Source of the DNA: Euglena gracilis | Taxonomy: Eukaryota | Length of the DNA stretch: 64,000 nt | Reading direction: 5' to 3' | Assembly (NCBI GenBank): GCA_039621445.1 | Contig: CP154954.1 | Location: 42,654,632 to 42,718,631 of the forward strand | Part shown: positions 43,101-46,100 of the stretch, piece after piece | Position numbering within the stretch: the first letter of the stretch is position 1 | How the letters are laid out: every line of letters starts with the position of its first letter | Notes under the pieces: model-generated | Database searches by the model: none | Seen by the model: only the letters and a program-made list of their open reading frames with translations | Told to the model about the DNA's origin: nothing | Program-made: the position numbers and the translations under genes

Positions 43101-46100
43101 TCTTGCTTGGTGTGCGTGTGGACGTATGATGATGCCCTTTATGTGTATCTGTTCAGGGGCATCATAACAATTGGGGAATTTACAGAAAATTGTTGGACCT
43201 GATTGGGCATTGGGCCAATTCAAGGTTTCAGCCCTGACATAATCTCTGGTCATCCCCAAGCTGACATAGAACCGTGCTTGAGTGGGCAATGGCTGCAGTG
43301 TCCCCATCATACCACTGTTTCAAAAACCAGTTTCAAAAAACTTTATTTCATTTTCGATTGCAATGGTCCTCATATGGGTGCGGGCAAATGCACACTCCAA
43401 TACAACAACAACAGAAACCTTGGGGCCCGCCAGAGCAACACCACGCCAGGGCGGAGAACTTTGAGCGGCCCGTGAGCAACTTCCGCATTGGGGGGCAGGC
43501 TTTCTTTTCATCAACCCGGGGGTGCCTCGTGCTGTTACAATATGGCAGTATGGGTTTCTGCCATTGCAGGCACCCCCCCCCCCCAGGGGGTCAGTTTTGG
43601 GCTCCAGTGCCTTCCAAAAGAACCAATTTCCCCTTGAAAATGGTCATTTTTGGGCCCCCGGCGCCGGGGGATGTGCTGGCGCACCACCAACCCAAAGCCG
43701 GACTGGGGTTTGAAAATGCCCAACCCTCCCCCTGCCTGCCCATAGCACCCCACCCCTCTCAGAGGTTGCGAACTTCCTTAAAAAGAAGGCTGATCGGGGG
43801 TTGCGGGGCGGGGAGGGGGGGCATGGGGACGGCGACGGCGTGGGCGGGGCTGGATCTCCCAGACGCAGCGACCCATGCGGCGGATGCCACCCCCTGGCGG
43901 GCTGGCACGGGAAGCAGGCTTGCCTGGGAGGGAGTGTTCTTTCCGAGAACCTGGGGCTTGGCGGGCTTCCTGTTGGCAACACAGTCGGGAGGAGCCAGCC
44001 CCGGGCGGCGGTGGGGCTGCCGGGGGCCTCGCCGTCGCTGCCGGCCGCCCGGTCCTCCGCGGCGCGGGCCGGGGCGGCGGCGGGGGGCGCCGCCTTCCGG
44101 ACGAGGCCCAGGGCCTGGTTCAGGGAGGCGTTGCACGGGATGGTGTCCGGGATGGGCGCCGGCCGGCCCGGCCCCGGGGGCGTATGTGGGGGGGGGTGGC
44201 TGGGCGTAGCCAGAGTTTTCATATGTGGCCAGCGGTGGGGGTTGGGGTGTGCCTCACACCCGACCGCTGCTCTCCGCAGACACATCCCGCGACGCCCCGA
44301 AGTGCCCCAGGAAGCTTGTTTGCTGGTCGGCCTTCCCCCAAACGTTGCAACCGTGGGGTGGGGGTGGGGTGGGGTGGGATGGGGATGGGTCTCCTGTTTC
44401 GGAAGAGTTTGTTTGGAGCTGCCGGGGGTGGGGGGGCTGGCTGAGCACACCACACGGGAGAGTGAATGCAGTTGGCGGCGGTAGCAGGGGCCGGCAGGGA
44501 TGGCTGGCTTCAGTGGGGCTTCCTCGACGACGGGGTGTTGCGGGGGCGGTGCGGGTGGCTTGGCCGGCCCGACCTTCTTGAGGCTCTCCATGAGGTGGAT
44601 GCGTGGCGAGAGGCCTCGCCTGGCGCTCAAGGTGTGCCGAACAGCTGGGCAAATCAATTTGCTTCTTCTCCTGTTACACGCAGATGTGCACACACCACAC
44701 CACTGAACACAGACAAAGAGAAAGAAGACGAACACAAACACACACAGCCATACACAGAAAGCATCCTGTCCTGCTGTCCCTCCCTCCCTCATCTGTGGGT
44801 GCACGTCACATGCACAATACAGCCCCATCCCATCCCCATCCCCTTTCCTTGTGGGGGTTGGCAGGTAGTTTCCATGGTCATTGCCCGGCAAATCAGCAAA
44901 ACTCGTAAGCAATTCTGTCGCAAACTTCCTTCAAATGGCGGAAACTTGCCGCTCTGCTGCAAACTTGCCTGTTTACGCAAATCCATCCCCGCTTTTTATC
45001 ACCGACTCCCTGGAGGGTGGCGCCGTTGGGGAGACCTCCGGCGGGCCGATGACGGGGCAGAGGCGCTCCCAGTCCTCCAGCAGGAGGTGCTTCAGCCCCA
45101 GATGGGCCCCGTCCGGACCAGCCATCAGAGCTCAGAGCGGCATCCGTTGAAGGCATATACAAATGGGGCTTTGGTTTGGCGTTTCTGGGCTGCTGGCCCA
45201 CAAAGTATGCCAACGTGTTCCGGCGGTATCTGAAAAAGCTGCTGTCCCACCCTCTGTGGGTGCATGGCACAGATGTGAACGAGGGGAAAAGGTGGCCCCA
45301 TCCCGGTGGTTTTCCTGGAAGTTTGAGGATGGGGTATTCTGAGGAGGCTTGACAGACCGTTTTCCTGTGTCATCGGAGGAGGAGGAGCACAATCCGCCGG
45401 CGCTTCGGCTGGGGCGCAAACTACGCTGTTGGTCGGTTGCCTCCGGAAGATCAGCGCTCCTCGCCGTTCCGCCCCGGCAAACCCATAATCAGCCCCCCCC
45501 CCTCCCCCCGCAGAAGGATGGCCGACGGCAGCCGATGGCCACGGCAGTGGCGGGGGGGGGGGGAGGGGGGGACTGAGGCGGGCCCCAGGCGGGAGCCGTC
45601 CACCAGCTCACGCCGCACGGCGGCCACCACGGGCTCCGCCACCGTGGGCTCGGCCGGGAACGCCTCCGCCAGGCTGGCCCCGACGAAGGCGCCCGGCCTC
45701 TTCTACTTTGAAAGACCCCCTTTCCGCTGGCGAACCAGTTTGCGGACCGGGGGACCCTGGGGGTCCCCCCGACTGGGAACAACGTTCTTCCGGCGCTGCG
45801 GTGGACCGCCCCAAGGTGGAGAAGGGCTTTTAATGTGGTTTTTCTTTGGCTGATTTGCTTCCAGGCATCCCCCCAGCAAGCCCCCCCCCCCCCGGAGGTC
45901 CAATAGGATTTCCACCAGCCAAATCGGGGTCACCCGGGGTCGAGCCCCCACCAGGGGGTTCTGTGAACCCTTAAGCAGAAGCCTGGAAGGTGCACACCTC
46001 CTCCACCGACCACGCGGCGGCGGCGCTGGGGGGCGGCGCCGTGCGAGGGGCAGCGCCGGGGGGGGGGGGGGCGGGCTGGGGGCCAGGGCGTCCCCTTCAA

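Follow-up and report, generated by a model that had tools for sequence, protein, structure and literature searches.

An inverted-repeat element in a Euglena gracilis exon is missing from RNA together with one target duplication's worth of sequence, probably as a nonconventional intron

The nonconventional introns of euglenids are described as having borders other than GT/AG, paired ends, CAG at positions +4 to +6, a junction that can slide because of short direct repeats, and positions that are absent from paralogues (PMC12501133, PMC3935182, PMC4770533). Their origin was called unknown or unclear in publications from 2014 to 2025 (PMC3935182, PMC12501133), and PMC3935182 adds that, up to then, no euglenid genome had yielded an identified transposable element. 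An origin from MITEs (miniature inverted-repeat transposable elements) has been proposed, with mention of repeats resembling target-site duplications (PMC3935182, PMC11282704, PMC12501133), as was noted in the original prediction for the DNA studied here, which was made from its letters alone. The recently gained gapC intron of E. agilis carries 8-nt direct repeats at its junctions, which were put down to break repair (PMC4770533). Here we describe a non-autonomous inverted-repeat element of 293 nt, termed copy A, that lies on the minus strand at 45985..45693 of a 64,000-nucleotide stretch of the E. gracilis contig CP154954.1 (hereafter the window, to which all coordinates refer) and that shares all of the above features of euglenid introns. 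Exactly 301 nt with non-canonical borders are removed from RNA at this site, the element belongs to a repeat family, and 8-bp duplications accompany it and further elements. We consider it very probable that copy A is a transposon that entered an exon and is spliced as a euglenid nonconventional intron, taking one duplication's worth of sequence with it. The body of this intron can be recognised as one member of a dispersed family of inverted-repeat elements and is accompanied by an 8-bp duplication, a situation that is not reported for euglenid introns in the parts of the literature examined. As the MITE origin is an earlier proposal, copy A is a concrete, RNA-verified case and not a new idea.

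Introner elements have reportedly been described by Huff et al. (2016). Those known from Micromonas, Aureococcus and other organisms resemble copy A in that a short transposon with terminal inverted repeats (TIRs) inserts into an exon without harm and its duplication helps to define the cut (PMC11282704). They rely, however, on spliceosomal GT/GC-AG sites, one of which arises from a 3-bp duplication (PMC11282704), whereas copy A has non-canonical borders and an 8-bp duplication, and the position of its cut, unlike that of introners, seems to be gauged from the inverted repeats once they have paired. These borders, and a likeness of only 72-87% between copy A and the other family copies in the window, set the locus apart from introner elements. 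The MITE-derived introns of Fritillaria borealis and Amoebophrya share with copy A the non-canonical borders, the inverted repeats and the duplications at the junctions, and are likewise recent gains (PMC11282704). An adapted spliceosome is presumed to excise them, whereas the products of euglenid splicing are reported as circles (PMC11282704).

The removal of copy A from RNA was followed in sequencing runs mapped on 40700-46430, which comprised raw RNA (X21 and X24), a contig set presumed to be RNA (X20) and DNA (X17). The 301-nt segment 45685..45985 (minus strand) is missing from one X20 contig (429 nt long, at depth 34.3, its listed pieces showing 0 other letters) and from 2 raw RNA reads of the separate run X21, all of which join 45684 directly to 45986; the 'both' value of this joint is 5. 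It has 0 reads in RNA run X24 and is not shown by the X17 DNA. The skipped length equals the 293 nt of copy A plus 8 nt, and the mRNA across the site reads ...GTG TGC ACC TTC GTC..., the very junction that had been predicted and that is now found in the X20 contig and the 2 X21 reads. Two outcomes that had been named beforehand as speaking against splicing did not occur. The neighbouring GT and AG sites are unused, since the joint runs from 45684 to 45986. Nor is the element kept, the X20 depth inside copy A being 0.92 compared with 28.7 and 20.2 in the adjoining bins. In total, 15 joints of 82 were listed, 9 of them intron-like skips and 6 put down to sequencing artefact. Two further intron-like joints lie on the same X20 contig as the joint at copy A, and 7 of the 9 intron-like skips are backed by raw X21 RNA reads (at least 1 each), so that the X20 contigs behave as RNA. 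Circle-junction reads were not found among the joints listed. The six rejected joints fall at the G/C runs 45549-45571 and 46055-46075 and show poly-G loose ends. These two runs collect hundreds of RNA reads as well as false 'skips' and 'goes back' joints, and the depth there does not represent expression.

Read along the minus strand, the locus has the order GAGGTGT, GCACCTTC, CAGGCTTCTGCTTAAGGG ... AAGTAGAAGAGGCCGG, GCGCCTTC, GTCGGG, with both outer parts being exonic. The boundaries of copy A follow from its sequence, blastn, alignment and a DNA-contig boundary. The 5' copy of the 8-bp target-site duplication, GCACCTTC (45993-45986, minus strand), is exonic, and its first 3 bases are unambiguously kept in the mRNA, while the 3' copy, GCGCCTTC (45692-45685, minus strand), is identical to it at 7 of 8 positions. 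The single mismatch is an A in the exon copy and a G in the intron copy. A paralogue of the host gene in the window (paralogue B, see below) has G at this position like the intronic copy, so the duplication was probably a perfect GCGCCTTC at first and the exon base changed later. In register +4:-6 the two ends of copy A form standard or G-U pairs at 11 of 13 positions (hand reading), and RNAfold places a 9-bp terminal helix, CUUCUGCUU/AAGUAGAAG, beside the motifs in the minimum free energy structure as well as in the centroid structure. The 293-nt core with paired ends and a 7/8 duplication, as originally described, is thereby borne out. The folding energy of the whole intron is ordinary, with a z value of -0.56 (-1.31 for a second folded intron). 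In the X17 DNA, 7 contigs track the window to 45986 and then differ from one another, so that the edge of the repeat is fixed at the CAG terminus to within 1 nt. Together with the raised X17 depth (42.6 over 45884-46075, compared with about 7-8 in most bins of 41084-45499), this split points to many copies that end at the terminus of copy A.

The same data bear on a different explanation, in which copy A is an insertion polymorphism and the RNA stems from an allele or strain that never carried it, so that nothing would have been spliced. The RNA runs and the assembly may indeed differ in strain, allelic differences are present nearby, and the junction sequence is that of an empty site. In the X17 DNA, neither an empty site nor listed pieces spanning copy A were seen. 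RNA letters of the element itself speak against a missing allele, as at a likeness of at least 95% the depth inside copy A is 0.92 in X20 and 0.51 + 0.31 in X21, whereas family members elsewhere in the window reach a likeness of only 72-87%. Furthermore, the two copies of the duplication are no longer identical, which means that the insertion is not a very recent one, and the same contig also lacks three other non-canonical segments that are certainly introns. We regard an insertion polymorphism as unlikely.

The transcript that carries the joint comes from a minus-strand gene. The X20 contig runs through 44500-44604, 45043-45096, 45590-45684 and 45986-46041, followed by 119 loose letters that correspond to 46800-46918. 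Contig and spliced frame together delimit the exon upstream of the copy A intron (45986..46041), the exon downstream of it (45590..45684) and the next exon of the same transcript (45043..45096). The contig alone gives its last part as 44500..44604, an exon with unfixed 3' extent, and the loose letters place a further upstream exon at 46800..46918. Across the four junctions, splicing leaves an open frame of 142 aa, which exists on the minus strand only. Its product matches paralogue B (33524-34815, minus strand) with 55% identity over 60 aa (E 2e-16) at 33703-33524, and weaker pieces of the match lie at 34588-34487 and 34815-34720. Sequence comparison reveals no interruption at the aligned site of paralogue B (34487..34588, minus strand). 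The claim that the element interrupts a SAM-like coding region therefore stands as far as coding is concerned, but the SAM assignment was not confirmed, since Pfam gave no SAM match for 4 exon and paralogue pieces including the paralogue open reading frame (ORF), each searched as a separate piece. The ORF of the downstream exon was sought inside longer proteins and was found in none of 277 candidates.

The two paralogues also differ elsewhere in their introns. Paralogue B lacks three introns of paralogue A (44500-46918), namely 45685-45985, 45097-45589 and 44605-45042, and contains an interruption of about 780 nt, an intron, between 34487 and 33703, where paralogue A has none. Within the upstream intron of paralogue A, 46042-46799 (758 nt), a (CACG)n array of some 37 units occupies 46436-46582. 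This intron begins with N3-CAG, and the CTG closest to its 3' junction, as placed here, is 9 nt away.

Knock-in experiments have defined the code of nonconventional introns as 5'-N3CDG..CH'GN5-6|R, in which the 5' spacer must be 3 nt long and the 3' spacer 5-6 nt, with 5 nt working best; natural introns as well as 50-bp synthetic ones are spliced when they are knocked into a foreign exon (PMC12501133). At copy A, CCTTC is common to both borders, so that its 5 letters fit on either side and the 301-nt segment can slide by up to 5 nt toward higher coordinates with the mRNA unaltered, giving six equivalent cut registers. On the minus strand, none of the six reads GT/GC-AG, and register 3, 45688-45988, reads N3-CAG...CGG-N5, whose 3-nt and 5-nt offsets equal the spacers defined by the knock-ins (PMC12501133). 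Since 3 and 5 add up to 8, an 8-bp duplication round a CAG..CTG element supplies both spacers, and removal restores the target in either orientation. The 3/5 offsets of the original prediction hold in that they equal the published spacers and in that 301 is 293 + 8, while the exact cut is ambiguous among the six registers. In the literature examined, supplements apart, we found neither a named euglenid transposon family acting as an intron nor a tie between the 3+5 spacers and an 8-bp duplication. The code is followed exactly on the minus strand by 3 of the 9 listed intron-like joints (41247, 42390 and 43836).

From these observations a sequence of events can be proposed. A non-autonomous cut-and-paste DNA transposon with CAG..CTG-type TIRs would have entered an exon of the minus-strand gene and would have duplicated 8 bp of its target, the duplicated sequence probably being GCGCCTTC. 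Its inverted repeats would then pair in the pre-mRNA and draw the ends together, whereupon nonconventional splicing would take out the element plus 8 nt, of which, by the published code, 3 nt would precede the CAG and 5 nt would follow the 3' motif. As the 8 nt removed amount to one duplication's worth, the mRNA would regain the pre-insertion sequence together with its reading frame. We infer the order of these events and the exact cut positions at copy A, and likewise that the same machinery and the same ruler act here as in the published knock-ins.

That copy A belongs to a dispersed family is evident from blastn of the copy A region against the window, which returned 55295-55202 (72% over 95 nt, E 3e-7), 38115-38085 (87% over 31 nt) and 63066-62974 (72% over 93 nt, E 5e-9). 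An alignment of 5 sequences (A1) displays blocks common to copy A and three further copies, B, C and D, over the full length, with the likeness beginning at CAGGC and stopping at GCC(T/G/A)G, so the copies predicted at 37736, 54887 and about 62720 were recovered by both methods. All three lie on the minus strand. Copy B extends over 54887..55295, with flanking 8-mers alike at 6 of 8 positions (hand count); copy C, at 37736..38115, has a CAGGCC...GGCCTG inverted repeat matching at 12 of 14 positions and flanking 8-mers alike at 6 of 8 (hand count); copy D is degenerate, with approximate ends at 62720..63070. The flanks are unlike from one family copy to the next, and the copies other than copy A end in CTG.

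We then asked the window as a whole for elements of this build. CAG...CTG pairs that are separated by 80-1200 nt and have an inverted repeat of at least 11/14 were counted, with 100 dinucleotide shuffles as control; the window has 64 such pairs compared with a shuffle mean of 30.2 ± 5.5 (maximum 47). Two of these pairs have flanks identical at 8/8 positions, for which the 100 shuffles gave 0. A second scan with free termini yielded 7 perfect 8-mers compared with 0.16 expected among 9,878 filtered inverted-repeat pairs, 3 of the 7 sitting in tandem or AT-rich repeats. Perfect duplications of 7 bp (1) and 9 bp (0) are at chance level, and 6 of the 27 perfect 6-mers are the elements with 8-bp duplications read one base wider. 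Six elements with perfect 8-bp duplications are thus present in the 64-kb window, a total that pools the free-termini scan with two elements from other scans, one of these scans being full of tandem repeats. Five of the six start with CAG, CAA or CAT and end with CTG, and one starts with GG and ends with CC. They comprise a CAG..CTG element at 17371..17821 with the duplication GAGTCGTG, an inverted repeat of 13/14 and subterminal repeats; a CAG..CTG element at 21624..21911 that starts with CAGGG and has the duplication CTCCCGAT; a CATGC..GCCTG element at 50825..51123 with the duplication GGTCCAAG and termini like those of copy A; a CAG..CTG element at 1697..2977 with the duplication ACTTGGAG; an element nested within the latter at 1987-2950 with the duplication GTCGGCAC; and a 306-bp element at 15828-16133 with the duplication ACATATTC and a long inverted repeat beginning GGCATAAATATCAAACTGCTACCCC (GGCATAA...TTATGCC) with GG..CC ends.

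These duplications also bear on the possibility that copy A is DNA captured during the repair of a double-strand break and was never transposed. Direct repeats at the junctions would be expected from staggered-break repair as well (PMC4770533). The insert belongs, however, to a dispersed family with terminal inverted repeats, and six elements in 64 kb carry exact duplications of 8 bp, while those of 7 and 9 bp stay at chance; capture during break repair is highly unlikely in our view. An alternative in the opposite direction would have the family spread as an intron, by reverse splicing or by re-integration of an RNA circle, with the DNA copies descending from introns. It can draw on the report that nonconventional introns leave as full-length circles (PMC11282704). 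An excised intron would, however, take its 3-nt and 5-nt spacers along wherever it integrates, whereas the spacers vary by copy and repeat the local flank, which is the signature of duplication at the DNA level, so that we give this alternative very little credence. The weakest explanation, a template switch of the reverse transcriptase over the hairpin or a GC-AG intron of a plus-strand antisense RNA, is suggested by the CCTTC at both borders, the pairing ends, the one plus-strand register of the joint 45684>45986 that reads GC..AG and the RNA libraries, which look unstranded, but is scarcely credible given that the skipped form is dominant by the X20 depths, that no plus-strand register of the other two joints of the same X20 contig reads GT/GC-AG and that the 142-aa frame with its paralogue match is open on the minus strand only.

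Several features of the window elements deserve mention on their own account. The nesting of 1987-2950 within 1697-2977, where both elements have perfect 8-bp duplications, points to transposition that was recent and occurred more than once. When the 451-bp element and one duplicate are subtracted from 17332-17837, 47 nt remain that form a perfect 11-bp stem, CAGGCAGACAC...GTGTCTGCCTG; this sequence may be a nonconventional-intron-like hairpin in miniature, or else what is left of a tiny element, that was hit by a later insertion. Between 9714 and 12660, dispersed TTGCGCACAC...GTGTGCGCAA inverted-repeat pairs lie beside palindromic TGCGCA and may represent another repeat family. Rfam gave 0 matches in the window.

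As to the superfamily, non-autonomous hAT elements such as Ds make 8-bp duplications and have YARNG termini. Giroux et al. (1994) are said to have reported the de novo synthesis of an intron by Ds. The likeness of our elements to hAT and Ds lies in the 8-bp duplication, the CAG-type termini, the short internal size, the subterminal repeats in 17371-17821 and this precedent for intron-like removal. The termini CAGGC and CAGAC agree with the YARNG consensus at 4 of 5 positions, the element at 21624 starts with CAGGG, and inverted repeats are present. Different from hAT elements, no transposase or autonomous partner was found; the Pfam search, which covered 10 of the 22 window ORFs of at least 260 aa, gave neither a transposase nor a SAM domain. 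The designation 'hAT-like' can hence be kept for the length of the duplication and the CAG termini only, as no transposase turned up in the ORFs scanned. Duplications of 8 bp are also known from P and Merlin elements. In E. gracilis, DNA transposons of the Merlin type are reported to have 8-bp duplications, and their inverted repeats open with GG and close with CC (PMC8101967). Such GG..CC ends are lacking in the family of copy A with its CAG...C(T/G)G termini, and copy A and 4 of the 5 other CA(G/A/T)..CTG elements start with CAG or CAA; 15828-16133 is the only window element among those described here with Merlin-type ends.

A second RNA-supported intron of 306 nt lies 2 kb from copy A at 43487-43792 (minus strand), in the X20 contigs only and with 0 reads in X21. 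It consists of a CAGCCTTCTTTTTAAGG...GAAAGCCTG CAG..CTG element at 43496-43792 (297 nt), whose termini are like those of copy A, plus 9 nt. The element is flanked by CCCCCGAT and CCCCCCAAT, and one flanking duplicate leaves with it. Its relation to the element at 50825 is left undecided by alignment A2, the two being linked by short blastn blocks only. The flanking duplications at 43479-43495 and 21616-21623 are almost the same (CCCCCGAT and CTCCCGAT), which could be due to chance or to a target preference.

Against the proposal that copy A is a transposon spliced by the nonconventional code, several points have to be set. The RNA support consists of one contig and 2 X21 reads, with none in X24, and the RNA label of X20 is a guess only. 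The exact cut is unreadable from RNA because of the six equivalent positions. Copy A departs from the strict euglenid code in its 3' motif, which is CGG (CCG with a 6-nt spacer) in place of CTG and leaves an A-G mismatch at the middle position of the motif pairing, and single CTG substitutions abolished the splicing of a test intron (PMC12501133). It departs further in the exon that follows the N3/N5 register, which begins with T where the code has a purine; a T at this position was tolerated in one of two test introns (PMC12501133). On the allele of the window, the 43496-43792 element would need offsets of 0-2 and 9-7 nt; a C at 43489, as in X17 DNA, creates GAT on both sides and the register N3-CAG...CTG-N6|G, which the element fits only with this C. 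In the four other introns whose N3/N5 register is clean, 11 of 32 flank positions match (binomial tail 0.16), which amounts to no general duplication signal and gives no indication that old nonconventional introns started out as such insertions. Reading ORFs across 'empty sites' is uninformative in this G+C-rich DNA. Finally, the 10 ORFs scanned yielded no transposase. On balance, the observations of the original prediction are confirmed, and its interpretation is supported in its core.

Beyond the single locus, we tentatively suggest a wider reading, which we hold to be possible but rather doubtful: the ruler of 3 + 5 nt may exist because its sum is the 8-bp duplication of a resident superfamily of CAG..CTG transposons, splicing may be an RNA-level counterpart of precise excision that works in either orientation, and most of the roughly 70% nonconventional introns may be decayed insertions. 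If this were true, the junction of the excised circle, made of the 5-nt and the 3-nt spacers, should spell the original 8-bp target. Whereas the MITE idea had rested on inverted repeats alone, the locus described here adds a repeat family at different sites and exact 8-bp duplications at sister elements. It further adds RNA proof that one copy, and probably two, are removed as the element plus one duplication, as well as a numerical link to the experimental spacers of 3 nt and 5 nt, by which the hypothesis becomes countable on existing genomes.

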